Assembly: GCA_964394725.1 (NCBI GenBank)
Contig: CAYMYS010000005.1
Location: forward strand, 1 to 55,347
Direction: 5' to 3'
Source: an uncultured Syntrophaceae bacterium
GTDB taxonomy: Bacteria > Desulfobacterota > Syntrophia > Syntrophales > UBA2210
Length of the DNA stretch: 55,347 nucleotides
How positions within the stretch are numbered: the first letter of the stretch is position 1; every line of letters starts with the position of its first letter. Below the pieces are notes generated by a model. The model was not told the DNA's origin, did not search any database, and saw only the letters and a program-made list of their open reading frames with translations. This document shows positions 119 through 42,026 of the stretch, one piece after another. Made by a program: the position numbers and the translations under genes.

Positions 119-521
119 GTCTTCTCCTTCCATTTTATGTAAATAGACAGCTTTTGCCCAGGGTGACAGGGTGATGGTTATGTTTTCAGTTTACCGCCTG
201 GTTCCCGGCAGTAGCCCAATATATAACACCCTATCCATTGGCTACAGCCCCGCCCATCCAGTCGTCAGCACTTATTCTATATCATATTTGAGGAAAATAT
301 CATCATTTTTTCTCGGTATGGGAACTGTGTGCAAGGGTGAAATCTTTATTCTTGACTTTCCTTTGACCCCATGATGGTATTATGACCTTAAATACTTGCC
401 TTTGGCCGTCAGACGCGTATTATCTAACATAGAAGCCCTTTCTGTGATAGGTTGTAACCAGTTTCAGGTGTCGTGATCTCAATAGAAAGTAAACAGAAAG
501 TAAGCGGGAAAGGAAAAAGCG

Positions 522-1124
522 ATGGGAATCAAAGAACAGCGGTTAGTCCTTGGCGTTGACCTTGATGGCGTCTGCGCTGATTTCTATGGCAGGATGCGCG
601 AAATAGCAGCAGAGTGGTTCGAGCGCGATCCCGAGGACCTGCCGACAGAAGTCAGCTACGGGTTAGAAGAATGGGGTATTATTGATTCTAAACAGTACAA
701 TGACCTGCACCGCTTCGCTGTTACGGAACGTAATCTCTTCAAAACTGAAAAAATGATAGATGGTGCTCGAAAGTATCTCTGGATGCTTTCAAATGAAGGA
801 TATCGTATACGTATTATCACACATAGATTGTTTATCCAGCATTTCCATAAGGTTGCCGTACAGCAAACAATCGAATGGCTCGACAATCAGGGAATTCCCT
901 ACTGGGACCTCTGCTTTATGAGGGATAAAAACGAAGTCGGCGCGCACATATACATCGAGGACAACCCGGAGAATATCAACGCTATGAGGGCAGCCAACCT
1001 GCACACAATTTGCTTTGGGAACAGCACCAATGTTCACATCAGTCAACCCCGCTCTGCAACATGGAAGGGTGTCTACGAACTGGTGCACGATTTGTCGGCA
1101 ACACTCTCAATCGATGAAGGCTAA
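522..1124 (+). CDS. HAD-superfamily 5'(3')-deoxyribonucleotidase (NT5C-like)
   Basis: N-terminal GVDLDGV (DxDGV) HAD motif I; C-terminal YIEDNPEN motif; 200 aa. Confidence 0.8.
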
Positions 1125-1137
1125 CGATTCCTCAAAC

Positions 1138-1163
1138 CGGGGTCAGGTCTCAACATTTGACAT
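1138..1163 (+). repeat. 26-bp dispersed repeat, copy 1 (CGGGGTCAGGTCTCAACATTTGACAT)
   Basis: Identical to 2342..2367. Confidence 0.9.
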
Positions 1164-1441
1164 GCACCACTCCGGTATTTGACATTTCTATTAGAGTGCT
1201 TAGATTACGAATGATATTCAAATGGTTGTTGATTTATTTTAAAGTAACTTATATAATTCAGCCCTTTGCAAAATAAATCAAGTAAATTTATGTAACGCCT
1301 GCCTCAAACTGTATACGAGGACTGCACGTGCGGCCATGCTTTTTATCCTGTCCGCTACCCTATTCGCGATTGAATCTGATATCACAGAAAAATTATCGCT
1401 GGAAAAGGCGATTGTTTTTTTGCAGGTTAAGGAGAAAAGAT

Positions 1442-2422
1442 ATGCTCAGTTTTTTACCTGCTCCCATACGAGGAGCAGTTTCTCTGGTCCTATACGTCGT
1501 TAATACACTTTTCTGGTGTATGCCGATTTTTTTCTTTGCCATTATCAAACTTGTTATTCCCTTGCCTGGTTTTCATACATTTACCAGCCGTCTGCAGAAT
1601 GCCTTTGCTGATTACTGGGTGGCTTGTAACAGTTTCAATATATGGCTGACAGACAAGCTTACCCTTGATGTGAGCGGAACGGACACACTGAATAAGAAAG
1701 ACTGGTATCTCGTAATAGCCAACCACCAGTCGTGGCTGGACATACTTATCTTACAGAAGGTATTTTATGGCAAGATTCCCTTTCTGAAGTTCTTCATCAA
1801 GAAGGAACTATTCTGGGTGCCCATTCTGGGACTTGCCTGGTGGGCCCTTGATATGCCCTTTATGAAGCGGTATTCGAGCCGATTCCTTGAAAAGAAACCA
1901 CACCTGAAGGGAAAAGACCTGGAAACCACGAAAAGGGCCTGTCGGAAGTTTAAAAATGTCCCTGTGTCTATAATGAATTTTGTTGAAGGGACACGATTTG
2001 CAATCGAAAAGCACCGCAAACAGCAATCGCCTTACAAGAATCTTTTGCGTCCCAAGGCAGGTGGAATTGCCTTTACCCTTGCCGCGATGGGGGAACAACT
2101 GAACCACATCCTCAATGTAACTATCGCCTACCCTGAAGGTGCCAGGGGATTTTGGAATTTTTTATGCGGAAAGGCCTATGAAGTGAAGGTACATGTTGAA
2201 TCTCTCCCTGTTAACAAAAAACTCCTGGGAGATTATTTCAGCAGCAGCATATATCGTGATAATTTTCATGCATGGCTTAATTCTATGTGGGAAGAGAAAG
2301 ACGAAAATTTGTCTAGACTCCTGTCGGGGTCAGACTCCTGTCGGGGTCAGGTCTCAACATTTGACATCTGCGCCCCCGCAGCCGGACTACAGCATAATGA
2401 ATCACTGCATTCCGGCTGCTAG
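1442..2422 (+). CDS. YihG-like acyltransferase (PlsC family)
   Basis: NHQSWLD (HxxxxD) motif, FFIKKEL and FVEGTRF motifs. Start moved from 1328 to ATG 1442 because AAGGAG lies just upstream. The C-terminal tail is altered by a 17-bp duplication. Confidence 0.85.
   Translation: MLSFLPAPIRGAVSLVLYVVNTLFWCMPIFFFAIIKLVIPLPGFHTFTSRLQNAFADYWVACNSFNIWLTDKLTLDVSGTDTLNKKDWYLVIANHQSWLDILILQKVFYGKIPFLKFFIKKELFWVPILGLAWWALDMPFMKRYSSRFLEKKPHLKGKDLETTKRACRKFKNVPVSIMNFVEGTRFAIEKHRKQQSPYKNLLRPKAGGIAFTLAAMGEQLNHILNVTIAYPEGARGFWNFLCGKAYEVKVHVESLPVNKKLLGDYFSSSIYRDNFHAWLNSMWEEKDENLSRLLSGSDSCRGQVSTFDICAPAAGLQHNESLHSGC
2315..2348 (+). repeat. 17-bp tandem duplication (AGACTCCTGTCGGGGTC x2)
   Basis: Two exact adjacent copies, 2315..2331 and 2332..2348. 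Confidence 0.92.
2342..2367 (+). repeat. 26-bp dispersed repeat, copy 2
   Basis: Identical to 1138..1163. Confidence 0.9.
2378..2419. terminator. Hairpin between convergent genes, possible terminator
   Basis: GCAGCCGGA (2378-2386) pairs with TCCGGCTGC (2411-2419); no clear U-tract. Confidence 0.35.
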
Positions 2423-2440
2423 CAGAAAGAGCTGCCGCTG

Positions 2441-3259
2441 TTAATCACCATTTACATTCATTACCGAAACATCGTATTTGACACCGACAACACTCTTAAC
2501 ATTTTTAATGACCCTCTTGAGACGGGCCATTTCTTCCTGTGTCTTCGTATAGCCCCAGACATGAGCTATGCCCCTTTCGTGAACTTCAATGTGCAGCAGA
2601 TTGATGTTGAAATTATTTCGCAGTACCTCTGCCTCTATTCTTTTAACGAGAGAGAGTTTCTCCATCGCTTCAGAAGCCTTCAATCCACACACGGCTATCT
2701 CTTCCGATCGTCCCGCTTCAATTATTATACCGGCAGCCGTTTCCGGTGACATCTTGTCACAGTTTATAATAATATCGTAGAGAGATGGACTGCTCCAATC
2801 TTCATGAAAGACGTGCCTGATATAGTCCTTGCGTTTATTGTCACTTTTTTCTATCAGTTTTTCGGCCGCCTCGCGGCTCAATCCCTGATGCTTCATCATA
2901 TCGGCTATTCTTTTTTTCTTCGATCCATAGATGTGTACATGGAGAGCACTGTCAAAATCCCTTAAGAGTTTTTGACTGCCGTGACCTATGATGACACCGT
3001 GACATCGTTTCGCCACCTCATAAATTACCGATGCCATCAAATCCAGATATAACTGAGGTTCACTTCTTATAATCCGGTCAAAAAACCCGGGGGCCTTCGT
3101 ATCAAATCCCTTCAGTTCATCTGCTTTCAGACCCATTTGAAGGGCTTCATCCCTCAGTCTCGCGTCATCATACAGTTCAAGCTCCAGTTCCTTCGCAACG
3201 ATTTGCGCAATTTCCACACCTCCGCAGCCTTTCTTCCTCGAAATCGTAATTAAAGCCAT
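2441..3259 (-). CDS. Cytidylate kinase-like family protein with a C-terminal BON-like domain
   Basis: ITISRKKGCGG N-terminus and YDIIIN motif of the Cytidylate_kin2 family. The last ~70 aa (IHIEVHERGIAHVWG..RVIKNVKSVVGV) resemble a BON domain. Confidence 0.7.
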   Translation of the reverse strand: MALITISRKKGCGGVEIAQIVAKELELELYDDARLRDEALQMGLKADELKGFDTKAPGFFDRIIRSEPQLYLDLMASVIYEVAKRCHGVIIGHGSQKLLRDFDSALHVHIYGSKKKRIADMMKHQGLSREAAEKLIEKSDNKRKDYIRHVFHEDWSSPSLYDIIINCDKMSPETAAGIIIEAGRSEEIAVCGLKASEAMEKLSLVKRIEAEVLRNNFNINLLHIEVHERGIAHVWGYTKTQEEMARLKRVIKNVKSVVGVKYDVSVMNVNGD

Positions 3260-3668
3260 TGTATTTCCTCCTCTGTTCTAGAATTTAACTCACTTCAACT
3301 GAACCTATTCAAAATGCCCTTGGCATTAATGGCATAACTATCTGTCATGTATTACTGTTTTATGATAACCTTTTATCTCTTTATGCCAAATTAATTGATC
3401 GATGTCAAGACAATTATAGTGTAGAGGAATAATTTTTGTACAACAGGAAGAAGGAAAATTGATGGTCTTTACCATTCATATGTAAGAGTTTCAACTTGAA
3501 CTGAGTGGTTGCGGGCAGATGACAACCGGTTTTGGACAGCAATAATAGTCACAATTTGCATGTACCTCATCGTAGGAACAAGACGGCATTCCATTCCAAC
3601 ATCTATGATTATCAGCGTAGTATTTTAAATGTTTTGATTGTTTCTTACAATAGATATTTTGAGACGAG

Positions 3669-4739
3669 TTAGACACTGAAGCGAATATTGAGGATATCTC
3701 CGTCTTTCACGGTGTAATCCTTTCCTTCAAGGCGAAAATGGCCGCCATCACGAACTGCCTTTTCGGAACCACATTCAATAAGATTATCATAGGAAAAACA
3801 TTCGGCACGTATAAATCCCCGTGAAAGATCTGAGTGGATTGTCCCCGCAGCCTCTACTGCCGTGTCGCCATTGTGGATTGTCCATGCCCTCACCTCGTCC
3901 GTACCAACGGTAATGAAACTGATGTAACCCAGCATTTGGTAAGCAAAACGTGTCAGACGGTTGCGTGCCGAGTCCTTGATCCCCATATCTTCCATGAAAA
4001 GTTTCACCTCTTCATAACTACTGAGGCGCGACAGTTCCATTTCAAAGCTTCCTGAAAATTCTATGATCTTGTACTTTTCCTTTAATTCTGTGATCATAGC
4101 ATCATTGCGGCCGAAATTGTCCTCACCGGAGTTGAGAATAATAAAGAGCGGTTTCTTCGTTACGAACTGAAAGCCGCTGATCAGGCGTTCTTCCTCTCTG
4201 TTCAGATCAAGATCACTGATATGGCGGTTGTTGTTTAATTCTTCCTCGATCTTCCTGAGTATTCGCTCTTCATTTTCCAGTTCAGTTGTTTTCTTACCCC
4301 TCTTGAAATTCCATTCGATACGTTCAAGCCTGTTTTCCGCGACTATCAGATCTGAGAGAATAAGTTCAGTATCCATCGTCTCTATATCTACGCGGGGTTC
4401 AGGATCTCCCATGAGATCATCGGAAAAGTTTCGAACCACCATGGCGATGGTATCCATCGTCTTTATGAGGCTCATCTGGGCAGTAGAAATACTCCCCTCA
4501 CGGGCAGATCCCTCGGAAAAACCGATAAAATCGACGAGTTCTATGGTGGCATAGATCGTCTTTTTCGGCTTGTACATACCGGAAAGGGTATTGATTCTTT
4601 CATCGCCTACATCGACGATGGCAATATTCGGTTCTGCCTTGTTGTTCGTGTATGCCGTAACCTCCGCCTCCAATTTCGTAAGCGCGTTAAAGATTGTCGT
4701 CTTGCCGGAATTTGGTAATCCCAGGAGTCCTATCTTCAT
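3669..4739 (-). CDS. ychF: YchF/Obg-like ATPase (DUF933)
   Basis: GLPNSGKTT P-loop, AGTIHSD, GFIRAE and EGKDY.V.DGD C-terminus. Start is ATG 4739 or GTG 4748. Confidence 0.88.
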   Translation of the reverse strand: MKIGLLGLPNSGKTTIFNALTKLEAEVTAYTNNKAEPNIAIVDVGDERINTLSGMYKPKKTIYATIELVDFIGFSEGSAREGSISTAQMSLIKTMDTIAMVVRNFSDDLMGDPEPRVDIETMDTELILSDLIVAENRLERIEWNFKRGKKTTELENEERILRKIEEELNNNRHISDLDLNREEERLISGFQFVTKKPLFIILNSGEDNFGRNDAMITELKEKYKIIEFSGSFEMELSRLSSYEEVKLFMEDMGIKDSARNRLTRFAYQMLGYISFITVGTDEVRAWTIHNGDTAVEAAGTIHSDLSRGFIRAECFSYDNLIECGSEKAVRDGGHFRLEGKDYTVKDGDILNIRFSV

Positions 4740-4916
4740 GTAAATCACTGTCCTTTGATTTATTCGTCTATTTTACTCAGTAAAAATAATGTTGATGCTT
4801 ACTGCAATATACTATTGAATCTAACAATGCATTGCCTAAAGTCAAGTATAGTCGATGTTTTGTGTATCAATGCTCCAAAGATAATCATATATGTTACCGG
4901 CGAATGTGCCAATCAG

Positions 4917-4963
4917 AAAAGGGTCACATCAAGCTGACTCTTGATGGCATAATGTGACCCTTT
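4917..4963 (-). terminator. Intrinsic terminator-like hairpin
   Basis: AGGGTCACAT / ATGTGACCCT arms; followed by TTTT on the minus strand. Confidence 0.5.
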
Positions 4964-4992
4964 ATTAACTACAACAGCGATTACTGATCATG

Positions 4993-5030
4993 AAAAGAGG
5001 GCCGGAAGGAAACATTCCCTTCCGGCCCTC
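4993..5030 (-). terminator. Intrinsic terminator of the symporter gene
   Basis: 13-bp perfect stem GAGGGCCGGAAGG / CCTTCCGGCCCTC, then TTTT on the minus strand, ~70 bp after the stop codon. Confidence 0.75.
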
Positions 5031-5097
5031 AACATTTGTGCCATGACGTGTAGGTTTATATATCTTTATCAGCCGATAGTAACATCAGGTCTCATTG

Positions 5098-6564
5098 TTA
5101 ACTACTATAAGATGCCTGGTGCATCTGTTCGACTAATTCGGCTGTTTCCTTCTTCGGCGGAGCGGTGAGCAGAGATCCGACAACCATGAAAATAATCGAT
5201 GCAGGCAGCGAGATCAAGATGTCTGCCAGGAAGGGAACGATCTTCATTGTGTGAACAATAAGAAAGACTGCAAACCCGCCAAAGCAACTCAGGAATCCAC
5301 CAACGTTGTTGCCGCGTTTCCACCAGATACCGAAGGCAATCGGGACGGCAAAGGCGGAACCCGTTCCTTCCACGAGGAGACCGACGATATAGCCGATACT
5401 CTTTGTCTCGAAAAGCGCCCCGACCATTGTAAGCACACCGATAATCGCGATCACGTACTTTGACAGACGAATGACGTCTTTTTCCGTCATTTCGGGCTTG
5501 AAAAATTTCTTTACGATATTCCCGGAAAACTCTACACCACAGGCAAGGAGCATCCCGCCTGTCGTCGACATGATCGCTGCAAGAATGCCTGCAACGGCAA
5601 ATCCTCTAATTATAGGGGGAAAGAGTTCATTCATAACGACAATGTATGTCCTGTCTACGTTGCCCAGTTTCGGCGCAATAATCAGACATGCACCTGCAAC
5701 ACCGATATATCCGATAAGATGGAATGCCCAGCAGAGCACAGAAGTCAATGCGACACCGCGACGTCCTGAATCGACATTCCGTGCCGTAAAATGACGCATG
5801 ATAATATGAGGTGATGAAAAGCAGAAAAATGATACTCCGAAGAACATGCCGATATAAGTCCAAATCGACAGCTTCGGACTGATCCCCAGAAAATCGGGTT
5901 TTATCGCCAGCGCCTTCGGCATCATCTCGCCTATGCCTCCGAAGTGAATTATGGCGACAATCGACAATCCCACCATGAAGCTGAACATGATAATGCCCTG
6001 CATGAAGTCGGTCCATGTTATGGAAAGCATTCCCGCCATGACCACATAGCCTACATAGACGCATCCGATCAGGACAACGGCTGACTTAAAGGGAATTCCC
6101 AGTATGTAGGAACCTGCGAGACCGCCACCGATCAACTGCGGTACGATGTAACAGGGGTATAGAATGAGAATGATGATACTGCTCGCCAGACCGGTGGAGG
6201 TTCCAAAACGCTCCGCCAGGAAGTTTGAAAGTGTGAACTTACCCCTCATTTCACTATAGCGTCGCAACGGTCCACTTACAAGGAGCATCGACCAGGCATA
6301 GCCGAAGGAGAGCGCACAGCCCACACCAATTGTAGTGAATGACCACCCCATCTTGTATGCCAGACCGAGAAACCCGAGGAAGCTTGCGGCGCTGACATTG
6401 GATGCAAACATAGCAAAGCCGTTTACCACCGAGTTGATGTTCTGCCCCGCACCCCAGTATTCCGCTTCACCTGTAGATGCCTTCTTTGAAAAGTGCACCC
6501 CAATCCATATACAAAGAGCAAAGTATAAAACAGTTATGATTAATTCTGTGACCATAATTTCCAT
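5098..6564 (-). CDS. Sodium:solute symporter family transporter (ActP/PutP-like)
   Basis: ~13 hydrophobic segments; SAASFLG, WTDFMQG and GILAAIMST motifs; AAGGAGG RBS. Confidence 0.9.
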   Translation of the reverse strand: MEIMVTELIITVLYFALCIWIGVHFSKKASTGEAEYWGAGQNINSVVNGFAMFASNVSAASFLGFLGLAYKMGWSFTTIGVGCALSFGYAWSMLLVSGPLRRYSEMRGKFTLSNFLAERFGTSTGLASSIIILILYPCYIVPQLIGGGLAGSYILGIPFKSAVVLIGCVYVGYVVMAGMLSITWTDFMQGIIMFSFMVGLSIVAIIHFGGIGEMMPKALAIKPDFLGISPKLSIWTYIGMFFGVSFFCFSSPHIIMRHFTARNVDSGRRGVALTSVLCWAFHLIGYIGVAGACLIIAPKLGNVDRTYIVVMNELFPPIIRGFAVAGILAAIMSTTGGMLLACGVEFSGNIVKKFFKPEMTEKDVIRLSKYVIAIIGVLTMVGALFETKSIGYIVGLLVEGTGSAFAVPIAFGIWWKRGNNVGGFLSCFGGFAVFLIVHTMKIVPFLADILISLPASIIFMVVGSLLTAPPKKETAELVEQMHQASYSS

Positions 6565-6582
6565 AGTTGCATCCCCTCCTTT

Positions 6583-6798
6583 TTATTTATCTTTTTCCCA
6601 TTTACGAAGCACCGGAATTGCGGCATATAAAAGTACGACGCCCGCTAAACCACCACCACCAATCAACCAGGTTACCAACGGGATCCCCAGCCACTCCGCC
6701 TTCGAAGCGAAGGCAAAAAACGAAAGAATCGCATAACCCATCACTATAATAAACAAATAAAGTCCGGGATTCTTCAGTGATGCAAATTCCTTTTTCAT
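6583..6798 (-). CDS. Small two-TM membrane protein preceding the symporter (YjcH/DUF485-like position)
   Basis: 71 aa, two hydrophobic helices, AAGGAG RBS, 18 bp upstream of the symporter start. Confidence 0.7.
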   Translation of the reverse strand: MKKEFASLKNPGLYLFIIVMGYAILSFFAFASKAEWLGIPLVTWLIGGGGLAGVVLLYAAIPVLRKWEKDK

Positions 6799-7008
6799 AA
6801 AACACTCCTTTCCCTGTTAATGAATAGATTTTCAAACCTGCTGTCATGGCATACCCGGAAACGCCTCTGTCTCCTGCTTCCAGCGCGGCATACTAAATAC
6901 AAAATACGCATTTTTACAATCGGGTTACGTCTCTTTTTTGTTTAGGATTACGCATCCCTCATATATGGGAATATATGAATATTAGACGTAACGATTCAGG
7001 AAATACTT

Positions 7009-7027
7009 CATAGGACTATGTCCTATG
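7009..7027. promoter_or_regulatory. Perfect inverted repeat CATAGGAC-TAT-GTCCTATG, candidate regulator site
   Basis: 8-3-8 palindrome between the response regulator stop and the transporter operon start. Confidence 0.5.
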
Positions 7028-7080
7028 CTTCCAGAGGGAAATCAAACACAGTGATGAGATAAGGGAGTAATGGCGGGATG

Positions 7081-7728
7081 TTAACCGATTAATTTGTTCT
7101 GAATAGCGTAAAGCGTTATCCCGGCGTTGTTCTTCATTTTCATCTTTTCCAGGATATTATTTCGGTAGGTGCTGATGGTCTTGACGGAAAGAGACAGCTC
7201 ACCCGCAATCTCAGTGACTGTTTTTCCCAATGCGATCATCAGCATAACCTGGTATTCACGATCTGAAAGTGTTTCATGGGGGAGCTTGTCTGTGTACTTA
7301 TCGAGATAATAGGTCAATTTTTCCGCAAGAGAGTGACTTACGTATCTGCCGCCTTTGGCAACTTTACGAATAGCCGCAATAAGTTCATGAGGTGCACTCG
7401 ACTTTGTCAGATATCCCGATGCGCCTGCGCGAAATGCCCTCACTGCATATTGTTCTTCTGGATATATACTTACAATTAATACAGGCACTTGTGTGTGTTT
7501 GACCTTTAATTCCTTTAATATCTCCAGACCGTCTCTGCCGGGCATGGAAATGTCGAGCAGCATGATATCGTATGTGTTCTTTTCCACCAAATCGAGCACC
7601 TCTTGACCATTACTCGCTTCATCGGAAATCACCATGTCGTATTCATCGGAGAGCGTTTTTTTAAATCCCTCTCGGACAATGGGATGATCGTCGGCTAACA
7701 GGATATTTATCTTCTTAATCTTCTTCAT
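7081..7728 (-). CDS. NarL/FixJ-family response regulator (REC + LuxR HTH)
   Basis: LADDHP, LLDISMP, GYLTK and LSDREYQV..SVKTISTY motifs. Confidence 0.93.
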   Translation of the reverse strand: MKKIKKINILLADDHPIVREGFKKTLSDEYDMVISDEASNGQEVLDLVEKNTYDIMLLDISMPGRDGLEILKELKVKHTQVPVLIVSIYPEEQYAVRAFRAGASGYLTKSSAPHELIAAIRKVAKGGRYVSHSLAEKLTYYLDKYTDKLPHETLSDREYQVMLMIALGKTVTEIAGELSLSVKTISTYRNNILEKMKMKNNAGITLYAIQNKLIG

Positions 7729-9173
7729 AGAACTTCTCCCAGTTGTGTGCAGGGCATAATGACCTCGATAACGGTTCCCCTGCCCTTTTCCCCATCAATT
7801 GAAACAGTGCCCCCCCAGTGATGGACGCGCTCCTTGATACCGATCAGGCCGAATGAATCGAGTTTCATCAAGTCTTCATCGCCTATCCCTTTACCATTAT
7901 CCCTTACACACAATGTAATCGTGTTCCCTTCCTCTGTAAGGCCGATCGATACTGCTGTAGCGGCTGCATGGCGAGAAATATTCGTTAGCGTCTCCTGGAA
8001 AATCCGGAATATTGCAGTAGACAGGTCGGGATCAAGGTCTATTTCTTCAGGTTCAACGCTGATATTACAGGATATGCCTGTCCGCTCCTGAAAATCTTTT
8101 GCCTGCCAGTCGATGGCGGCTACGAGGCCGAGGTGATCCAGCATAGCCGGTCTGAGATCCTTGTATATCCTGTGCAGTGTTTCCATTGTTATGGAAATAA
8201 GATTGGACATCGATTCAATCTTGTCATCCAGGGATTTCTCTTCAGGAGATATATGCTTTCGTAAGAGAATGATATCCGTATTCAGCGCCGTGAGCAGTTG
8301 CCCCAATTCATCATGAAGCTCACGAGCGATATGGGTCCTCTCCTTTTCACGAACCAATTGGAGATGTGCGGAGAGTTTTTGCAGTTGAATCCGCGATTCT
8401 TCCAGTTTTCGCTCCGCCCGTTTACGGTGTGTAATGTCTTCGTAGATGGCCACAATGCTCTTCCCGGGTTGAACATTACCAATTCCCGATACGCTGATCA
8501 GACACTCGATTTCCGTACCATCTTTTCTTCGACAGGGAAACTCCTGAGCGAATGCGCCCGACCTTTGTATTACGGGATATATCATTCTAACAATTTTTCC
8601 ATACTCTTCTTCGTTTCGGTACAATACGCGAATGCTTTTCCCGATTAATTCCTCGGCATCCCATCCAAAGACGGATGCTACACCGCTATTGGCAAAGAAG
8701 ACATGCCGATCTCTCAATCCTATGACTGCATGGGGAATGGCTTTTAAAATGGATGATTCGAGGGTTTCCAGTTCGAGAACCTTATGCCAGGATTTCATCT
8801 GTTCGGTGATATCGATTGAACTTCCCAGGACCGCACGTCTGCCCCTGTAACGAATGGATGTTACCGCTCCATCTATCCACCGAAGTTCACCATCCCTTGT
8901 TGTTATTCTGAATTTATAGGATGAATCGCCGTCATCTTTCAGCATCTTGATGGCATTTTTCCGTAAAGATTTTCTATCGTCGGGATAAATATAGTTACTG
9001 AAATCCCCACCCAGAAGTTCCTCCTTTGCCCGTCCCAGACACAGTAAGGTATAGTTATTTACAAACTGGATTTTCCCATCCTGCATTATGTACATACCCA
9101 CATGGGAATTCTTCTCCAAGGACTTGAACAAGCTCCCTTCAAAGATTGTATTTTGCAATATGCCCTCATCCAT
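7725..9173 (-). CDS. Soluble PAS-PAS sensor histidine kinase (HisKA_3)
   Basis: Two PAS/PAC domains, IARELHDELGQ H-box, ETLTNISRHA, VRDNGKG and FGLIGIKER; no TM segments; 4-bp overlap with the regulator. Confidence 0.92.
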   Translation of the reverse strand: MDEGILQNTIFEGSLFKSLEKNSHVGMYIMQDGKIQFVNNYTLLCLGRAKEELLGGDFSNYIYPDDRKSLRKNAIKMLKDDGDSSYKFRITTRDGELRWIDGAVTSIRYRGRRAVLGSSIDITEQMKSWHKVLELETLESSILKAIPHAVIGLRDRHVFFANSGVASVFGWDAEELIGKSIRVLYRNEEEYGKIVRMIYPVIQRSGAFAQEFPCRRKDGTEIECLISVSGIGNVQPGKSIVAIYEDITHRKRAERKLEESRIQLQKLSAHLQLVREKERTHIARELHDELGQLLTALNTDIILLRKHISPEEKSLDDKIESMSNLISITMETLHRIYKDLRPAMLDHLGLVAAIDWQAKDFQERTGISCNISVEPEEIDLDPDLSTAIFRIFQETLTNISRHAAATAVSIGLTEEGNTITLCVRDNGKGIGDEDLMKLDSFGLIGIKERVHHWGGTVSIDGEKGRGTVIEVIMPCTQLGEVL

Positions 9174-9286: not shown

Positions 9287-10663
9287 TTACTCTTTATTTT
9301 GCTTGAGCGCCTTTTTAAATACTTCAAATTCGAGGCCACCCATCTTTGAGTTTATCATTACAAAACCCACCAGAGATGATATTATGCAGGCAGACATAAA
9401 ACCTGTTCCGTAGAAACTGTATCCCATGTGTATAGACAGCAAGGTTACACCGGCGTTTAAGGCGAAAAATAATAGATTCATTTTAACCAATGCGGCATAG
9501 TCGTCGAGGTACTGAAGCACGAGAAAGCAAAAGAAATAGAGCGAGAAAAAGATCGTGCCCAGTAAGAGGTAATGGAATACAAAGGGGTTTCTCCAGGGAA
9601 GGGGGATAACCTTTATGTAAATCAGAAAGAGAATAAACATCGATATGCCGCCGTAGAAGATAAATATTGACGATGAGACATAGTTTATCCCCCTAACCAG
9701 GTTATATTTTTCAAGGGCAAGTTCCCTGAAGGGAAAATTGTTTGAAATCTTGAAGATAAAGGCCTCATAAGGTCCGGTAATTTTGCCTTTGACACCCCGG
9801 TATACAAGGAAAGAGCCGATCATCATTATTAAGAGAGCCACAAAAAAGGGGAGATCATATTCCGTGTAATATCGAAAGAATGTGTCAACTGCACCCCTTT
9901 CCCCCAGCATATACCAGAATATGAATTTATCACTCCAGAAGCCCAGACTGAATGTGAAGATGGCAAATCCCAGATTTACCAGACCCCGGCGTTTGAGGAA
10001 ACTCCAGTCAATCGCAATGGGATCTCTGAGATAGACCTTGATTACATATGAAGCCCCCAGGGCTACCGGTATCACTGCAGTCAGAGAAAATATGGCCAAA
10101 AGGCCCTTGGTGTCAACGGGCCTCACTATAAGAAATAGTGTCAGGGTTGTTACGATTCCAAACGTAAATACCATGAGAAAGATCTTTTCTCTCTTGAGAG
10201 AACTCAGGGTCGTACTTATACACCATAAAAGAGACATCAGTGCAGTCATCCCTACAAAACCTACCTTGAGATCGAATGGAATCTGTGAGAGGGGAAAGAC
10301 AATAAGAGACGAAACGACGGAGGAGATGATAACAATGAGTATGCACAATGAGATCATCCCGTCTGTTATTGCCTGATATCTCATAAGAAATATCTCATCC
10401 GCCATGTAACGGGTAAACATCGCATGAAATGGAGACGATATGATCAGCGACAATGCCGTCGCATAGGTGATCAAGAGATAAAAGAGTACGGGAGACGTTC
10501 CGTGCACGAGAAAGACGGTAATACCCATTATTCCCAGGCATACAACGGTGAGGAGCCAGGGACCCACAGCCTCCATGACATTGACGGCTTCTTTTATAAG
10601 TGAACCACTGAGCGTCCTTTTCTGGACGTATTTCTCCAGTAAGAAATTAATCCCTGCCATCAA
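9287..10663 (-). CDS. pelG: PelG-like exopolysaccharide transporter
   Basis: MAGINF.L.K N-terminus and GPW(L)L motif as in PelG; WSDKFIFW and YDLPFFVA motifs; ~12 TM; lies downstream of pelF. Confidence 0.8.
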   Translation of the reverse strand: MMAGINFLLEKYVQKRTLSGSLIKEAVNVMEAVGPWLLTVVCLGIMGITVFLVHGTSPVLFYLLITYATALSLIISSPFHAMFTRYMADEIFLMRYQAITDGMISLCILIVIISSVVSSLIVFPLSQIPFDLKVGFVGMTALMSLLWCISTTLSSLKREKIFLMVFTFGIVTTLTLFLIVRPVDTKGLLAIFSLTAVIPVALGASYVIKVYLRDPIAIDWSFLKRRGLVNLGFAIFTFSLGFWSDKFIFWYMLGERGAVDTFFRYYTEYDLPFFVALLIMMIGSFLVYRGVKGKITGPYEAFIFKISNNFPFRELALEKYNLVRGINYVSSSIFIFYGGISMFILFLIYIKVIPLPWRNPFVFHYLLLGTIFFSLYFFCFLVLQYLDDYAALVKMNLLFFALNAGVTLLSIHMGYSFYGTGFMSACIISSLVGFVMINSKMGGLEFEVFKKALKQNKE

Positions 10664-12113
10664 TAAACTCCCCGTAAATCTCCCTGTATCTGCGAATGAC
10701 CAACTCTTCCCGATAATAATTTTCTATCCTTTTGATGCCCTTTTCCGCCATTCTGTTTGCCAGTTCCGTATCCCTCAATATATGTATCGTGGCCTCAGCT
10801 ATTCCCTTTGGATCCATAACCCTCTCAACAACGCCTGCTTCACCAATGTCATCATTATTCCCGTAAATAAGTTCACGGCAGGCACCCACATCTGTTGCCA
10901 CAACAGGGACACCACTAGCCATTGCCTCCATCACCACGAGGGGCATTGCCTCTTTTATACTGGTGAGAAGCAGGACATCCATCGTCTTGTAATATTCTTT
11001 AACGTCGGCCCTGCCGGTAAAGGTAACAGCGCTTTCGAGATGGAGCATTTTCGTCAGCTCCTCGCATTCCTTGTAATAATCGGGCTGTTCATCCGTTGGA
11101 CCTATAACATAACCATGAACATCTCCATACCCTTGCTTTATAATTGCCATTGCCTGGATAAATGTCTTTACGTCTTTGACACTGTCGACCCTCCCTACCA
11201 TGCCCACTATTCTCGGTGTCTTCGTACATCGTCGCTTTCGTGCCTCCTTGAAACGCTCAATATCGATGCCGTTGGGTATTACCGTAATGGCATTCCCATC
11301 GGCCCCGTATTCCATTTGCAGCCTTCTGTTTCCCTCATAGAGCGTTATCATGCGATCACAGGTTTTGTACTGCCAGAGACATATTGCGGTAAAAAAGTCG
11401 ATCCACATATCCTTCAGGTAGGGATCATCGAGCCATTGAGATTTCAATAACTCCATCTCTCTCTCCTGAAGATAGATACCGTGTTCCGTAATCATCGATT
11501 TTCTCCCGTACATTGCCGATTTAATGCAGGCAATGAGCCCTCCGTAGCCCGTACTGGGAGAATGGTATATGGTCGCCGTTGGAATCTTTGCGATCATGGA
11601 GAGGAGCCTGAAGAGGATGAGATGTATATTTCGATGATTATAGAAGTATTTAATAAATCCCACATCACCTCGGAATTCTTCATATATATGTGTAAGGAGT
11701 GAAAATGCGTCCTCGTCATTGAGAAAGTTGTTGAATATATTTGGAGAATAATCGGTTATCAGTTCCTTCACAAATAACAGATTTTCATGTGAGACTGTAT
11801 TATCCCGCCAGTCCATCATGAGCCGGAAAAGTCTGTCCGACAATAAACGCCACTTCCTCGCCGACAGCCTCAATGGTTTCGCATTTTCTATTTCGTCGTA
11901 ATCGAATATGACGTATTCATCGTAGGAAATCACATTTTTGGGGAGGGTATATTTCATATCTTCCCTGCGTTTTTTCTCTGCAATGAGCGCCACCACTGAG
12001 AAGGTAAATTCCGTCGTATTCTCCATAAGCCACTGAAGCCATGATGAAACCCCTCCGGTGACGTAGGGATAACTGCCCTCTACAACCAGGCAGATGTCAG
12101 CACTCTTTTCCAT
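10647..12113 (-). CDS. pelF: PelF-like GT4 glycosyltransferase
   Basis: ADICLVVEGSYPYVTGGVSSW, STGYGG, TEHGIY..ER, GRV..VKDVKTFI and EAMPLVVMEAMASG motifs. Confidence 0.92.
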   Translation of the reverse strand: MEKSADICLVVEGSYPYVTGGVSSWLQWLMENTTEFTFSVVALIAEKKRREDMKYTLPKNVISYDEYVIFDYDEIENAKPLRLSARKWRLLSDRLFRLMMDWRDNTVSHENLLFVKELITDYSPNIFNNFLNDEDAFSLLTHIYEEFRGDVGFIKYFYNHRNIHLILFRLLSMIAKIPTATIYHSPSTGYGGLIACIKSAMYGRKSMITEHGIYLQEREMELLKSQWLDDPYLKDMWIDFFTAICLWQYKTCDRMITLYEGNRRLQMEYGADGNAITVIPNGIDIERFKEARKRRCTKTPRIVGMVGRVDSVKDVKTFIQAMAIIKQGYGDVHGYVIGPTDEQPDYYKECEELTKMLHLESAVTFTGRADVKEYYKTMDVLLLTSIKEAMPLVVMEAMASGVPVVATDVGACRELIYGNNDDIGEAGVVERVMDPKGIAEATIHILRDTELANRMAEKGIKRIENYYREELVIRRYREIYGEFIDGRD

Positions 12114-13096
12114 GTCTTACAAGCCTCTTTTACCTTATCGGGGATGAACACTCCTCCGGCTGTCTCTATCAACGCGTAAAGATTATCGAAGGCATCTCTG
12201 TCTTTAAGCCTTATGGAAAGCTCAAACTCGTAGGTTATCCATTTCGGGAAAAAGTAATTCCCCCCTGCCCTGATTTGTTTGTAAATTTCTTCCGCCTCTT
12301 TTATCCTGTCCGATTTAAGGAGAAGTTTTACTGCAAATTGCGCGTCATCTTCAGATCCACCTTCTTTGTAGGCGATTACTGCATAATGACAGGCACTCTT
12401 TTCATAAAACTGCTTCATAATGGGATCACATAAATCAAGATTGTATATCTCATGATAGAGGCTTGCAAGTCGACCTGGTATTGTCTCGTCGGGATTTTTC
12501 ATTGCCTCCAGTTCCGCTATGTCAGATAAGATTGAATCAATCTTCTTGCTTATCATGTCGATGGCCATGAGAATGACGCTCTGATAGGGGCTGAAACGTA
12601 TGATATATTTAAGAATGCTCGATTTTATTGATGACCATTCCGACTCTCCCAGGAGTCCTATCATCTTAAAGGCATCTTCCCTTTTCATGCTCTTTATCAA
12701 GAGTGCCTCCGAAATGGGCAAAATTCTACCGGAGAATTGCCTTGTCATAACTCTCAGTATTTTTTTATCTACCTTTTCGAAAGATTCACTCCTTACGGGG
12801 TATACCGGTACAAAGCGGAGAAAGAGGGGGAGGCACAGGGCGGTAACGGGACCTGCCATAGGAATGAAGGCAATGGCGATAATAAAAATGGTAAACCCTC
12901 TGGTAATAATTTTCTCTCTCAGAAGTCGGTCCGATGCGGCAAGGGAAATATATATCAAATAGGTCAGTCCCATGGTTACACCGTGGGCAAAATAAAACTG
13001 GACGAGATCGGTCCAGCCTTCTATTCCCCTCAGAAAGAAGACGACTGCTGCAATTTCCGATATTGTCCAGTAAAAGTAAAGCTTACTGCCCATCAT
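12080..13096 (-). CDS. PelE-like membrane protein with TPR-like helical C-terminus
   Basis: N-terminal TM helices then an all-helical domain; occupies the pelE position between pelD-like and pelF genes with overlapping start/stop codons. Confidence 0.6.
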   Translation of the reverse strand: MMGSKLYFYWTISEIAAVVFFLRGIEGWTDLVQFYFAHGVTMGLTYLIYISLAASDRLLREKIITRGFTIFIIAIAFIPMAGPVTALCLPLFLRFVPVYPVRSESFEKVDKKILRVMTRQFSGRILPISEALLIKSMKREDAFKMIGLLGESEWSSIKSSILKYIIRFSPYQSVILMAIDMISKKIDSILSDIAELEAMKNPDETIPGRLASLYHEIYNLDLCDPIMKQFYEKSACHYAVIAYKEGGSEDDAQFAVKLLLKSDRIKEAEEIYKQIRAGGNYFFPKWITYEFELSIRLKDRDAFDNLYALIETAGGVFIPDKVKEACKTWKRVLTSAWL

Positions 13097-14285
13097 ATCT
13101 CCCGATAGTTATATTCTCTTCAGTTTTTTTCAGGCGCTCTATGACTGCATGTACATATTTCTCTTCAGTCATGGAAAGGAATACAACCATCTCGCTATCG
13201 TTCAGCATATAGAATTCATCATACATCCGTAAGGTCCTTGACAGTTTATAGACCAGTCTTTCCGAGATCATTCCCGAAATGTGGAGCAGACAGAAGGCTA
13301 GTTTATACTTTTTATAGCGGGCAACGTTTCTCTTCAGAAAGGTTTGAGACACATCGGGACGATAGGCAATAACCGATGCGAACCGGCTGTATGACCGCAT
13401 TTCTTCTCTGTAAAGTTGATTCTCGATACTGTTTTTCACCCAGAAAGCCGCTATCTTGAGCAGATTGATCAAATCTTCCGAAAGGTTGATGAATCTGATC
13501 TCTTCCACAATGATGATATATCTCAGCTGTTCCGATGATGAAAGTATCGGTATTGCCATAACCAGTTTGTTACCAAACTCCCTGGGCACAATGACCTCCT
13601 GTTTGGAAGCGGCGACACGTAAGATTTCCGGCATATCTTCCGTTTTCCATTTGAGTACCTCGGGTAGCGTCGTCGAACCGAAATAAGACAACCGGTTGAA
13701 TTCGTGCTTGGTAACTGGTTCATATATGCTTGATTTTTCCACATGACAGTGTGCGTATAGGACGTACAGTATCTCGTCAAACAATGTCATGGTGTCCGTG
13801 ATTCCCGACAGCCTTCTGAAGGCCTGATACATGATCTTTGGTGATTCCATATCGGTCAGCACTTCATGGAAGGCATCGGTTAGGGCCCTGTCCTTTTCCG
13901 ACAGATCGATACTAAGCGTTTCGATACGTTTTTCGAGTATCCTGTTGGTAATATCAGTGTTTGTGGTCTTTAGTTCGTTTGCCGACCGCACAAAGCCGGT
14001 TACAAGGATGGTTACGAGAAAGAAACTCGTTTCCATGTAGTTTTGAGTCAAAAAGATAAAGGAACTTTGCTTTATAAAGGCGTAGATGAAAAGGCCGGAA
14101 AAGATCACTGTTCCGAGGGCGCCTTTAATGCCGTAATAGAGCGTAAAAATAATGCCGACAAAGCATAAGAGAAGAAATTGAAATTTTAAGGTGGTTATTC
14201 CTCTGGTGTGGAGAAACCAAATAGCACTATAAAGAGCAATAAGTTCACATAGGAAAACGACGTTTTTCAACCATGTACGCTTCAT
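13083..14285 (-). CDS. PelD-like c-di-GMP receptor (TM + coiled coil + GAF + degenerate GGDEF)
   Basis: ~4 TM helices, a coiled-coil stretch and a GAF-like region. The C-terminal domain has RMYD (RxxD I-site) followed 5 aa later by NDSEM in place of GGDEF. Confidence 0.7.
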   Translation of the reverse strand: MKRTWLKNVVFLCELIALYSAIWFLHTRGITTLKFQFLLLCFVGIIFTLYYGIKGALGTVIFSGLFIYAFIKQSSFIFLTQNYMETSFFLVTILVTGFVRSANELKTTNTDITNRILEKRIETLSIDLSEKDRALTDAFHEVLTDMESPKIMYQAFRRLSGITDTMTLFDEILYVLYAHCHVEKSSIYEPVTKHEFNRLSYFGSTTLPEVLKWKTEDMPEILRVAASKQEVIVPREFGNKLVMAIPILSSSEQLRYIIIVEEIRFINLSEDLINLLKIAAFWVKNSIENQLYREEMRSYSRFASVIAYRPDVSQTFLKRNVARYKKYKLAFCLLHISGMISERLVYKLSRTLRMYDEFYMLNDSEMVVFLSMTEEKYVHAVIERLKKTEENITIGRYDGQ

Positions 14286-14341: not shown

Positions 14342-14680
14342 TCAATTGCTAAAGGATTTAACGGCAACGTTCTTTGACTTATGTATTTCGATGACTCTAT
14401 CAAGCCGGATGAGTTTAAATAATGCCACAATCTCTTCGGCGGCATTGCACATTTTCACGTCTCCCTTTTCCGCCCTGGCCTTTCTCAAACAAGAGAGGAT
14501 GGCACCACAACCGGAGCTGTCGACGAATCTGACATGAATCATATCTAATACAGCGCGAGGATTTTCCTTTATGATCGGTTCTATATCGCGTTTAAATTCA
14601 GGACTGTTAGTCGCATCAAGCGTATTGTCGGGGATGGTTATCACCTCGACATTTCCAATTCTTTCACGATCGAATTTCAT
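14342..14680 (-). CDS. STAS anti-sigma factor antagonist (RsbV/SpoIIAA family)
   Basis: 112 aa; LDM..V.FVDSSG.G motif with the phospho-acceptor serine. Confidence 0.9.
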   Translation of the reverse strand: MKFDRERIGNVEVITIPDNTLDATNSPEFKRDIEPIIKENPRAVLDMIHVRFVDSSGCGAILSCLRKARAEKGDVKMCNAAEEIVALFKLIRLDRVIEIHKSKNVAVKSFSN

Positions 14681-14804: not shown

Positions 14805-15983
14805 TCAATTATTTTTCTTGATGGATTCCTTAACCTTGACAACGACACAGGTCATATCGTCTGAGAATGTGTCGCATCCCGAAAATCCTGTCACCGTTAC
14901 CTTTATTTTTTTTATAAAATCGTCACAGTCACGTTTGTAGTTCTTTTTGACAAGGTCTTCCAGCCGCTCTATTCCAAAGAGTTCCCCCCTGCTATTGTGC
15001 GCTTCCGTGATTCCATCGGAATAGAAAAAAAACAGATCTCCTTCCTTGAAGGAGGCCGAACTTTGCCGGTATACCTCATCTGCCCAAAAACCGAGGGGCA
15101 TGTTTTCCCCCTCCAACCTGATACACTTTCCATCATCATGCTTAAAGTGAAGTGTGCTTGTATGTCCGCAGTTTATAAAGCAAACCTTTTTGCTTCGCAT
15201 ATTCAAGCGTAAATAGAAGAGCGTTACAAAACTTTCCAGCCTGATCAACTCATCTGTAATTTCGGAATGAATCCTATTGACTATCTCTGCCGGTTCGGGG
15301 GGTATACAACTTTCCGATCCTATGATTATTTGATTGACGGCCCGGAGCAATTGATTCTTTGTTGCCGCCCCGAACATGGCCGCAGGGATTCCCTTGCCCA
15401 TAACATCCGCCACAATGACATCAAATATTTCATCATTGTATTTAATAAAGTCGTAGAAATCGCCATCGATCTTCTGTGATGGAAGCGTCAACGCAGCTAT
15501 TTCTACTCCGGGAATATCCTTGGGTGGGTCCTCAAGCAGGAGCGTTCTTTGTATTTCGTATCCTATTCTGGCAATCTGCCTTTCCCGTTCCTTCCTGACG
15601 TCCATCTCTTTCTTCAGTGTCAGAGCAGACTTGACCCGTGCCAGCAGTTCAACCTTATTGAAGGGCTTTTTAATATAATCCATCGCACCGGCATCAAAGG
15701 CGGCCTGAAGTGATGTTTCATCCGTCTTTCCGGTAACCATGATTATGGGAATATCTTCAAACCTGTTATCCGATTTTATCTTTTGACATGCCTCGATTCC
15801 GTCTATCTCGGGCATCATGATATCCATGAGTATCAGGTCTACAGCGTTATCGGCATCATCCAATACCTGAAATGATTCCCGGCCCGACGATGCAAGCATA
15901 CTGTCCCCGTATCCCGATTTTTCCAGTATCGCGGCAAGAAGGATTCTACTATCCGACGAATCATCAACGATAAGAATATTCAT
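14805..15983 (-). CDS. Response-regulator receiver + PP2C/SpoIIE phosphatase (RsbU-like)
   Basis: ILIVDDS and LILMDIMMP receiver motifs; IDGDFYD, ADVMGKG, YSDGITEA and DDMT PP2C motifs. Confidence 0.92.
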   Translation of the reverse strand: MNILIVDDSSDSRILLAAILEKSGYGDSMLASSGRESFQVLDDADNAVDLILMDIMMPEIDGIEACQKIKSDNRFEDIPIIMVTGKTDETSLQAAFDAGAMDYIKKPFNKVELLARVKSALTLKKEMDVRKERERQIARIGYEIQRTLLLEDPPKDIPGVEIAALTLPSQKIDGDFYDFIKYNDEIFDVIVADVMGKGIPAAMFGAATKNQLLRAVNQIIIGSESCIPPEPAEIVNRIHSEITDELIRLESFVTLFYLRLNMRSKKVCFINCGHTSTLHFKHDDGKCIRLEGENMPLGFWADEVYRQSSASFKEGDLFFFYSDGITEAHNSRGELFGIERLEDLVKKNYKRDCDDFIKKIKVTVTGFSGCDTFSDDMTCVVVKVKESIKKNN

Positions 15984-29887: not shown

Positions 29888-30977
29888 TCAGCTCATAAGG
29901 TATGCTTCCATCAAATCATTAATGTCTCCGTCTAATACCCTGTCCACATTTCCCACTTCCATGCCTGTCCTGTGATCCTTTATCAATTTATAGGGGTGAA
30001 GAACATAGGAACGTATCTGACTTCCCCATGCAATCTGCTTTTTACCCTTATTCATTTCCTTCATTTTTTCACTTTTTTCTCGCAGTTTCATCTCGTATAG
30101 CCTTGACTTTAAAACCTTGAGAGCCGTCGCCTTATTTTTATGCTGTGATCGTTCATTCTGGCACTGAACAACAATTCCTGTGGGCATGTGCGTAATCCTG
30201 ATGGCGGAATCTGTCTTATTGACGTGCTGGCCGCCCGCGCCACTTGCCCTGTAGGTATCTATGCGGAGGTCATTTTCATCGAGTTCGACGGGCACATCGT
30301 CACTAACCTGTGGATAGACAAATACTGAGGCAAATGATGTGTGTCGCCTCCTGCCGGTATCGAAGGGTGATATGCGTACAAGCCGGTGAATTCCCACTTC
30401 AGCCTTTGCATATCCGTATGCATATGGGCCGTCTATGGTTACTGTCACACTCTTTGTGCCCGCTTCATCACCTGCCTGAAAGTCTATGATTTCAGCGGTG
30501 TAATCGCGTCTCTCCGCCCATCTGAGATACATGCGCAGAAGCATCTCCCCCCAGTCCTGGGCCTCCGTACCACCGGCTCCTGCATGGATGGTCATGATGG
30601 CACTTCCCGGATCCTCTTCATTGCCTAACATCATCTTAAATTCGTCATTTCTGACAGACGATTCAAGGTCATCGAGATTGTCTTTAACCTCCTGAAGCGT
30701 ATTATCGTCATTTTCTTCCTTGGCCATCTCAAAGAGCATCGTCAATTCCTGGAGAGTCTTTTTCTTATCATTAAGGTTTGTTATTACCTGTTCCAGATTA
30801 TTTTTTTCTTTGAGGATATCTCTGGCCTTTTCATGGTCACTCCAGAAATCCTCCTTTTGTGCCTCCTTCTCCAGTATCCTTATTCTCTTTTCCTTTTCAT
30901 CTATTTCAAAGATAACCTCGAAGTGTATCTATTCTTTTCTCCAATTCCTTTAAGGTTTCATAAATAGTCTCTATCAT
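29888..30977 (-). CDS. prfB: Peptide chain release factor 2 with programmed +1 frameshift: join(30977..30909, 30907..29888)
   Basis: ATG 30977 gives MIETIYETLKELEKRIDTLRGYL then CTT TGA (30911-30906) with AGGT 3 nt upstream. The +1 frame continues into the SPF and GGQ motifs; ~362 aa in total. Confidence 0.95.
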
Positions 30978-35868: not shown

Positions 35869-35945
35869 TGGCGGGGTCGATGGGACTCGAACCCACGGCC
35901 TCCGGCGTGACAAGCCGGCGTTATAACCAACTTAACTACGACCCC
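35869..35945 (-). tRNA. tRNA-Asp(GTC)
   Basis: GGGGTCG/CGACCCC acceptor stem, CCGGC-TTGTCAC-GCCGG anticodon arm, GTTCGAG T-loop, CCA; 77 nt. Confidence 0.96.
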
Positions 35946-35954
35946 GAATATGCA

Positions 35955-36030
35955 TGGTAGGCGGAACAGGACTTGAACCTGTGACATCCACGGTGTAAGC
36001 GTGGCGCTCTCCCAACTGAGCTACCCGCCC
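35955..36030 (-). tRNA. tRNA-Val(TAC)
   Basis: CCACG-CTTACAC-CGTGG anticodon arm, GTTCAAG T-loop, CCA; 76 nt. Confidence 0.95.
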
Positions 36031-41722: not shown

Positions 41723-41751
41723 GATGTTACTCCTTATCTTTATTTTTTGAG

Positions 41752-41949: not shown

Positions 41950-42026
<77 letters not shown>

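Follow-up and report, generated by a model that had tools for sequence, protein, structure and literature searches.

The window analysed here, a 55,347-nucleotide stretch from an uncultured Syntrophaceae bacterium (contig CAYMYS010000005.1 of assembly GCA_964394725.1), corresponds in reverse complement to the greater part of a 66.5-kb contig from a metagenome (ENA ERZ27317826 k141_704441) and contains a cluster of four minus-strand open reading frames (ORFs) at positions 9287-14285, which encode the synthase half of a Pel exopolysaccharide system. Pel is a major polymer of biofilm matrices, built of alpha-1,4 GalNAc with partial deacetylation. The genes follow each other in the order pelD-E-F-G, with overlaps of 14, 34 and 17 nucleotides (nt), just as a first-pass annotation made from the sequence had described them, down to the exact boundaries. 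The same annotation had passed over two genes upstream of pelD, coding for a STAS protein and a receiver-phosphatase (REC-PP2C), which are conserved together with pelD. The core of the locus is as follows:

13083..14285, minus strand: pelD, 400 amino acids (aa), with transmembrane (TM) helices, a GAF domain and a degenerate GGDEF-like domain
12080..13096, minus strand: pelE, 338 aa, with membrane helices at the N-terminus and an all-alpha, TPR-like domain after them
10647..12113, minus strand: pelF, 488 aa, the polymerase, a cytoplasmic glycosyltransferase of the GT4 type that carries DUF3492 at its N-terminus
9287..10663, minus strand: pelG, 458 aa, the polytopic inner-membrane protein of the Pel synthase
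14342..14680, minus strand: STAS gene, a single-domain protein of the anti-sigma-antagonist type (Pfam STAS and TIGR00377)
14805..15983, minus strand: REC-PP2C gene, a serine phosphatase (Pfam Response_reg PF00072 and SpoIIE PF07228)

The strong PelF and PelG signals reported earlier were recovered with curated hidden Markov models (HMMs). PelF matches the NCBIfam PelF equivalog NF038011 over its full length (1-489 of 489) with 423.6 bits against a cutoff of 100, and comprises the Pfam domains DUF3492 (PF11997) and Glycos_transf_1 of the GT4 type (PF00534), while PelG matches Pfam PF16933 (1-452 of 452) with 221.9 bits against a cutoff of 29; neither protein has a close relative with a solved structure. 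The D- and E-like proteins of the window gave no match in Pfam or NCBIfam, and PDB sequence searches with them, both single-sequence and profile-based, returned insignificant matches to the PelD GAF domain (E ~0.5) or none. The PelD_GGDEF model (PF16963) was absent from the window protein and from 34 family members even at E-values up to 1, and present in the canonical PelD controls. The canonical PelD and PelE comparators were taken from collinear pelA-B-C-D-E-F-G loci, whose PelD proteins were checked for PF16963. Profile-profile comparison with hhalign aligned the D family with canonical PelD at a probability of 97.3% (E 2e-11) across 347 columns, extending from the TM region to the C-terminal domain, and the E family with canonical PelE at a probability of 98.3% (E 2e-14) across 316 columns. 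In the AlphaFold model (pLDDT 76) the D-like protein begins with four helices, continues with a long helix and a GAF fold, and has a short alpha/beta domain after these; the best fold matches of the model in the PDB, as detected by Foldseek, are the P. aeruginosa PelD structures 4etz, 4dmz and 4eu0 (E 8e-9). The model of PelE (pLDDT 80) is all-helical, with membrane helices preceding a helical-repeat domain, and with it Foldseek retrieved only weak, generic TPR matches. The assignment of these two ORFs as pelD and pelE is therefore upheld by profile-profile comparison for both and by the fold match for D; the outcome under which it was to be abandoned, namely that neither would display Pel homology, was not observed. 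The D-like and E-like families (62 and 53 clusters, respectively) are both confined to Desulfobacterota-type sequences.

Three residues of the D-like protein, R353, D356 and R384, are invariant across the 34 family members and align with R391, D394 and R425, the sole invariant arginine, aspartate and arginine of the canonical PelD C-terminal domain. By spacing they correspond to R367, D370 and R402 of P. aeruginosa PelD, which is a cyclic di-GMP (c-di-GMP) receptor and in which binding of c-di-GMP and formation of a pellicle depend on each of the three (PMC2170427). The R353-x-x-D356 motif together with R384 constitutes a candidate c-di-GMP I-site, which would be predicted to bind this nucleotide. 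The proof that the D-like protein is a PelD with an intact I-site is new here. In the features tested the cluster belongs with the PelDEFG synthases, with a single exception, the Pfam PelD_GGDEF model.

At the level of sequence identity this family is rather distant from the canonical collinear pel loci, with values of 32-39% for PelF and 22-30% for PelG. Because PelF is so diverged, the possibility arises that this is a Pel-like synthase making a chemically different glycan, whose partners need not be PelA, PelB or PelC. The lack of a PelD_GGDEF match is compatible with such a function, as is the remark of Whitfield et al. (PMC7112168) that the product of divergent pel loci may be another polymer. 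However, PelF scores four-fold above its equivalog cutoff, and the nearest outgroups, described below, pair the same synthase clade with PelA-, PelC- and GH114-type genes; hence, we regard this alternative as distinctly improbable.

The pelD-E-F-G genes of the window are a real and intact inner-membrane synthase gene set: all four reading frames are uninterrupted and coupled by their overlaps, and the STAS gene and pelD-G are under purifying selection, with dN/dS values of 0.05-0.22 across the four lineages of the window's subclade (Type 3, see below) that were compared. A decaying remnant, left behind after the loss of export genes, might be envisaged from the local isolation of the cluster and from the deletion of a neighboring kinase domain (see below). 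The intact frames with coupled overlaps, the low dN/dS values and the invariance of both the I-site and the STAS phospho-serine are hardly those of a decaying locus, and make this the least credible of the explanations, one to which we give almost no weight. The relatives of the cluster that were found all belong to Desulfobacterota, and its GC content (0.435) agrees with that of the flanks (0.447), a composition on which horizontal transfer of the cluster was rejected. Near the operon no Rfam element, including riboswitches, was detected, and pattern scans for promoters and terminators yielded background levels at the operon.

A Pfam survey of essentially all window ORFs of at least 100 aa found no pelA, pelB or pelC, and no GH114 or GH166, CE4, TPR, porin, PelC-type lipoprotein or epimerase domain; the ORFs are otherwise of a housekeeping nature, including those for Lon, ClpXP, trigger factor, FtsH, Lnt, RF2 and LepA. 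Gene calls over all but ~1.2 kb of the 66.5-kb parent contig likewise lack pelA, pelB and pelC. Neither the window nor this contig, then, carries a contiguous pelABCDEFG locus of the diderm type, and the earlier observation that no deacetylase/hydrolase, TPR-porin, lipoprotein or epimerase gene lies in the window not only holds but extends to nearly the whole contig.

To place this arrangement in context, more than 40 loci carrying the window-type PelDEFG clade or a related export operon were compared, a synteny survey in Desulfobacterota that had been suggested along with the first-pass annotation. It revealed three arrangements, in which the export genes form an operon of their own. Type 1 is found in Desulfacinum hydrothermale DSM 13146, several metagenome-assembled genomes (MAGs) and metagenome contigs from JGI. 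It displays the order sensor-PP2C-kinase, STAS and pelDEFG, often followed by a GH114 gene, and facing pelG is a convergent operon that ends in genes for a GH114 protein, a protein of ~700 aa and a TPR protein of ~870-950 aa, with PelC-like and AMIN-TPR genes located farther upstream. The ~700-aa protein has no Pfam match, but it matches residues 248-818 of the PDB PelA structure 9cgy (E 1e-84), and can therefore be identified as the deacetylase part of PelA. Type 2 occurs in low-GC Desulfobacterota MAGs, including CR9063A and SM7059A, and displays the order TPR (455 aa), pelDEFG, GH114 (257 aa), TPR (775 aa) and GGDEF cyclase (e.g. L016 8574-19373; also L018, L019, L021-L025, L027 and L028); it lacks the STAS/PP2C genes, and no PelA-type deacetylase was found within 10 kb. 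Type 3 is typified by the window and includes four other lineages with PelD identities of 72-80% (the subclade comprises the window, L007/8, L009, L010 and L114-118). Here REC-PP2C(-kinase), STAS and pelDEFG are followed, in this order, by the PAS kinase, the NarL regulator, a small ORF and the SSF permease, and export genes are missing from the vicinity of pelDEFG. Across the Desulfobacterota Pel family the synthase and export halves are always separate transcription units, even when adjacent, and Type 3 can therefore be understood as the case in which they ceased to be neighbors: in the nearest outgroups pelG and the export operon converge, and in the window's subclade the two are not adjacent. 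This two-operon architecture, in three arrangements, is new here. A PelD-profile scan of genome contigs recovered 17 Desulfobacterota loci, none with more than 45% identity; as the window's subclade has no reference genome, the export half of the window's genome can be approached only indirectly.

Genes on the pelG side of the cluster include:

7725-9173, minus strand: PAS/HisKA_3 histidine kinase (Pfam), directly downstream of pelG
7081-7728, minus strand: NarL/LuxR response regulator (Pfam), after the PAS/HisKA_3 kinase
6583-6798, minus strand: small ORF of 71 aa, no Pfam match
5098-6564, minus strand: SSF permease, downstream of the NarL regulator and the small ORF
2441-3259: Cytidylate_kin2 gene, the counterpart of copies in two related loci (L114 and L039)

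The order kinase, regulator, small ORF and SSF permease is kept in L007, L009 and L114. The two-component pair lies beside pelG only in the window's subclade; neither Type 1 nor Type 2 loci have it. Its best NCBIfam matches, both below cutoff, are MctS for the kinase and MctR for the regulator. Because the pair precedes the small ORF and the SSF permease in all Type 3 loci, it is more likely to serve the transporter, and probably belongs with the permease (5098-6564) rather than with pel.

A candidate for the missing half is offered by a subclade of deacetylases (L039, L037, L119/L120 and L051) with 63-77% mutual identity and ~50% identity to those of Type 1. The operon in L119 encodes, in order, a hybrid kinase, REC-GGDEF, Hpt, PelC, GH114, AMIN-TPR, GH114, the deacetylase and a TPR protein, with PelC identified by its match to the PDB PelC structures 5t0z, 5t10 and 9h80 (E 2e-12). 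No pelDEFG genes are present within 10 kb upstream of this operon in L119 and L120, or within 7.5 kb downstream in L039. Five matching lines of evidence point to a link between this export subclade and the Type 3 organisms. The first is co-occurrence: L039 and L037 derive from the same JGI metagenomes (Ga0272441/Ga0272442) as the Type 3 contigs L116 and L117. The second is a flanking gene, in that L039 has a Cytidylate_kin2 gene directly after the TPR gene which is 86% identical at the nt level and 91% at the aa level to the L114 copy, located there 6 kb downstream of pelG, and 78% identical in aa to the copy in the window. The third is the receiver domain of the L119 REC-GGDEF protein, with 59-62% identity to the receivers of Type 3 REC-PP2C proteins, against 49% for the Type 1 orthologue. 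The fourth is tetranucleotide composition, whose correlation with the window reaches 0.947 for L119 and 0.943 for L120, values comparable to those among pieces of the window itself (0.939-0.953), other loci giving at most 0.913; similarly, L039 is the best non-homologous match to both L114 (0.918) and L007 (0.907). The fifth is divergence. In linked Type 1 pairs PelD identities of 73-78% go with 66-70% for the deacetylase and 56-61% for the TPR protein, a calibration fitted by the 73% PelD identity between the window and L114 and by the 63% (deacetylase) and 59% (TPR protein) between L119 and L039. Given these observations, we consider the chance somewhat better than even that the window represents a split pel system with its export half elsewhere in the genome; by comparison with its relatives, the window's own genome most likely encodes the export operon at another site. 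The two independent assemblies that hold L119 and L120 (ERZ24794671 and ERZ24794672) both break ~100 nt past the stop codon of TPR853, which suggests a repeat or a strain-variable junction at their 3' ends.

Several observations weigh against this split. The export operon is known from relatives and not from the window's own genome, of which the 66.5-kb contig has none. The matches listed from a protein search with the deacetylase profile include three proteins of sister lineages and none from the window's assembly or the NCBI MAG, although a deacetylase from the window's genome would be expected to score within the range of those matches. A metagenome scan with the same profile retrieved mostly canonical collinear pel operons from other phyla and nothing attributable to the window's organism; one deacetylase, P0239, with a source pattern like that of the window, was set aside as belonging to an unrelated organism of 66% GC with its own pelFG. 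PelD of the window type was not obtained from the samples with L119, and no sample contains low-GC lineages of both subclades. L039 and L037, at 77% identity, are more diverged than the two PelD lineages in their samples (dN ~0.04), and so cannot both be partners of these. The synteny break between L039 and L114 directly upstream of the shared Cytidylate_kin2 gene fits equally well with the export operon having been deleted in the window's lineage. Moreover, neither an HMM of canonical PelB C-termini nor a PDB sequence search revealed a porin domain of the PelB type in the Desulfobacterota export operons, and in the large TPR proteins (L119 12091-14652, L006 15077-17941 and L119 6736-9042) the TPR repeats run to the C-terminus. 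Finally, c-di-GMP binding, STAS control and polymer chemistry are predictions for this system.

Some of these points are equally those expected of a truly minimal system, in which the pelC/pelA/pelB operon has been deleted and PelDEFG makes a non-deacetylated polymer that is either retained, in the periplasm or on the cell, or exported by unrelated machinery. Such a system would account for the lack of export genes across 66.5 kb and of a matching deacetylase from the window's assembly or MAG among the matches listed, and the break upstream of Cytidylate_kin2 fits an insertion of the export operon as well as its deletion. The Type 2 loci, which are also without a deacetylase within 10 kb, and the loss of the kinase domain from the phosphatase beside the STAS gene in the window could be seen in the same light. 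It is because the protein search listed no such deacetylase from its assembly or MAG that this alternative is retained for the window's own genome. Against it, purifying selection acts throughout the subclade on STAS and on each of pelD-G; P. aeruginosa requires the full set of seven pel genes, and extracellular Pel depends there on the deacetylase (PMC10269871); and an unlinked export operon with a compositional and phylogenetic match exists in co-occurring relatives. We therefore judge the minimal system to be rather unlikely. Of the two options offered in the first-pass annotation, a split locus or a minimal system, the former has gained ground from the separate export operon of the family and the matching unlinked subclade, and the latter is the less supported. 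If the lineage were truly to lack PelA, PelB and PelC, this would imply that the synthase half is useful alone in a diderm.

The conserved STAS/PP2C module directly upstream of pelD is a new and less expected result. In the window the STAS gene (112 aa) precedes pelD by 56 nt in the same orientation. All Type 1 and Type 3 loci whose sequence reaches beyond the start of pelD have it there, at an upstream distance of 13-71 nt, with the exception of Desulfacinum, where the distance is 2.3 kb. This linkage holds across PelD identities of 39-100% and GC contents of 44-68%. An FVDSSG motif with the phosphorylatable serine is invariant in eight STAS orthologues, and dN/dS for this gene is 0.05-0.17; it is probably the first gene of the pel operon. 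The STAS gene is in turn always preceded by one for a PP2C phosphatase, whose sensor domains vary (REC or FHA-GAF-PAS). Orthologues of REC-PP2C in L007, L009, L114 and L006 are 527-538 aa long and possess a C-terminal HATPase_c_2 kinase domain of the RsbW type, which in Desulfacinum is encoded by a separate gene. The version in the window, of 392 aa, ends right after the PP2C domain and lacks HATPase_c_2; since the gap to the STAS gene is just 124 nt, the kinase domain must have been deleted rather than frameshifted. The REC-PP2C protein is likely to be the phosphatase of the STAS protein. Of the components of a partner switch the window retains the STAS protein with its conserved serine and the receiver-PP2C phosphatase, and lacks the RsbW-type kinase. 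In an incomplete literature search no paper linking a STAS switch to Pel was found. In L007 and L114 a gene at 5258-7798 for an 846-aa REC-MshEN-T2SSE-REC ATPase lies between the B12-radical-SAM and REC-PP2C genes; the window has no such gene.

By analogy with the P. aeruginosa system, PelF would polymerise a nucleotide-sugar in the cytoplasm, and PelD, PelE and PelG would form a membrane complex passing the chain to the periplasm, the synthase being switched on by binding of c-di-GMP at the retained RxxD...R site of PelD. The STAS module might add a second, partner-switch input, analogous to that of SypA and SypE in Vibrio fischeri, with the adjacent receiver-PP2C phosphatase, and in relatives also the fused kinase, setting the phosphorylation state of the STAS protein. 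The periplasmic and outer-membrane half, including a PelC lipoprotein, GH114 hydrolases, a PelA-type deacetylase and TPR proteins, would sit elsewhere in the genome. The c-di-GMP gating, the STAS control and the nature of the product in this scheme are all presumed from characterized systems. It is conceivable, though on balance doubtful, that the STAS protein is a direct, phosphorylation-controlled activator or inhibitor of PelDEFG, such that Pel output needs both c-di-GMP and the partner switch. If true, this control of PelDEFG would be the long-sought kind of target for STAS proteins of the SypA type, and the kinase-less REC-PP2C variant of the window would be locked in one state. More generally, the STAS link represents a candidate second control layer on a synthase-dependent exopolysaccharide system.

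The V. fischeri system (PMC4517449, PMC10120452) is indeed reminiscent of this module: there, too, an exopolysaccharide locus opens with the gene for a STAS protein of one domain, in which the phospho-serine is conserved, and the partner of this protein is a response-regulator-type PP2C phosphatase/kinase. It differs in serving another polysaccharide pathway and in the domain order of SypE, which is kinase-REC-PP2C as opposed to REC-PP2C-kinase in the relatives of the window and to the copy without a kinase in the window itself; moreover, the module described here is a predicted one. A further parallel is the HptB-HsbR-HsbA-HsbD system of P. aeruginosa (PMC5085249), in which biofilm formation is under the control of a REC-PP2C-kinase together with STAS and Hpt proteins and a diguanylate cyclase. 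Ahead of the export genes of L119, the region 224-5044 encodes a dCache-HAMP-PAS hybrid kinase, a REC-GGDEF protein (with intact GGEEF and RxxD motifs) and an Hpt protein, and so supplies the hybrid histidine kinase, REC-GGDEF and Hpt components, with a receiver paralogous to that of the PP2C protein. The 59-62% identity between the receivers of this cyclase and of the PP2C protein beside pelD suggests that one phosphorelay might feed both c-di-GMP synthesis and the STAS switch. In Pseudomonas the system is not linked to pel, whereas here the module appears from gene neighborhoods to be divided between two pel operons.

The window locus resembles P. aeruginosa pelABCDEFG, whose PelDEFG is an inner-membrane synthase complex (Whitfield et al. 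2020, PMC7099134, cited in PMC10553843), in the order of the four proteins, in the TM-GAF-degenerate GGDEF layout of PelD and in the three c-di-GMP residues. Unlike it, the window has no pelA, pelB or pelC upstream or anywhere on the contig; in the Desulfobacterota family separate GH114 and deacetylase genes take the place of a single pelA, and the searches described above gave no porin domain of PelB. The C-terminal domain of the window PelD is also shorter and is missed by PF16963, and the STAS and PP2C genes precede pelD. The pelDEA(DA)FG operons of Bacillus cereus and other Gram-positive bacteria (PMC7112168) similarly start with pelD-pelE, end with pelF-pelG and lack pelB and pelC, but in them pelE and pelF are separated by a deacetylase gene, whereas in the window these two overlap by 34 nt. 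As no gene intervenes there, the cluster is not of this type, and its context is that of a diderm, with Lnt and a TolB-like protein in the window and PelC and TPR genes in relatives. Rearranged pel loci and the fission of pelB have been described by Bundalovic-Torma et al. 2020 (PMC7112194).

The PelF of the window is 62-64% identical to the PelF proteins of the MAGs CR9063A and SM7059A. From their names we take these to be seep MAGs of the Seep-SRB1a/1g kind. Pel operons have been reported in syntrophic Seep-SRB1a/1g Desulfobacterota by Murali et al. 2023 (PMC10553843), and belong to the same phylum and the same PelDEFG clade as that of the window. Loci of this type (Type 2) combine TPR, pelDEFG, GH114, TPR and GGDEF cyclase genes without STAS/PP2C, whereas the window has STAS and PP2C genes and neither GH114 nor TPR. 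The earlier suggestion that the cluster could underlie syntrophic aggregation gains plausibility from that report (PMC10553843), although it is not new, as Pel operons in syntrophic Desulfobacterota are already published. As a marker for sulfate reducers that live in syntrophy the pel operon has already been put forward, and the present comparison clarifies the version found in Desulfobacterota: a PelD of the c-di-GMP type, two separable operons, and, in Types 1 and 3 but not in Type 2, STAS/PP2C genes heading the synthase operon. Genome surveys that score pel by a contiguous pelA-G would misjudge Desulfobacterota organisms of this kind.

A different arrangement is seen in an organism of 66% GC that comes from the same study series (L109 8630-22232), where PelC-like, GH114, deacetylase, two TPR and PelD genes are succeeded, in this order, by an EAL/HDOD gene, after which follow convergent pelF, pelG and a gene of 374 aa. 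Elsewhere in the window, an Rfam tRNA at 41755-41838 overlaps the 5' end of the listed trigger-factor ORF (40418-41857), the start of which is for this reason probably over-extended; other tRNAs lie at 35872-36030 and 41953-42026, with a truncated one at 55298-55347. The release-factor ORF (29888-30745, minus strand) encodes 285 aa and its PCRF match begins at profile position 56, a pattern as expected if this gene, as may be the case, is a prfB with the usual programmed +1 frameshift.

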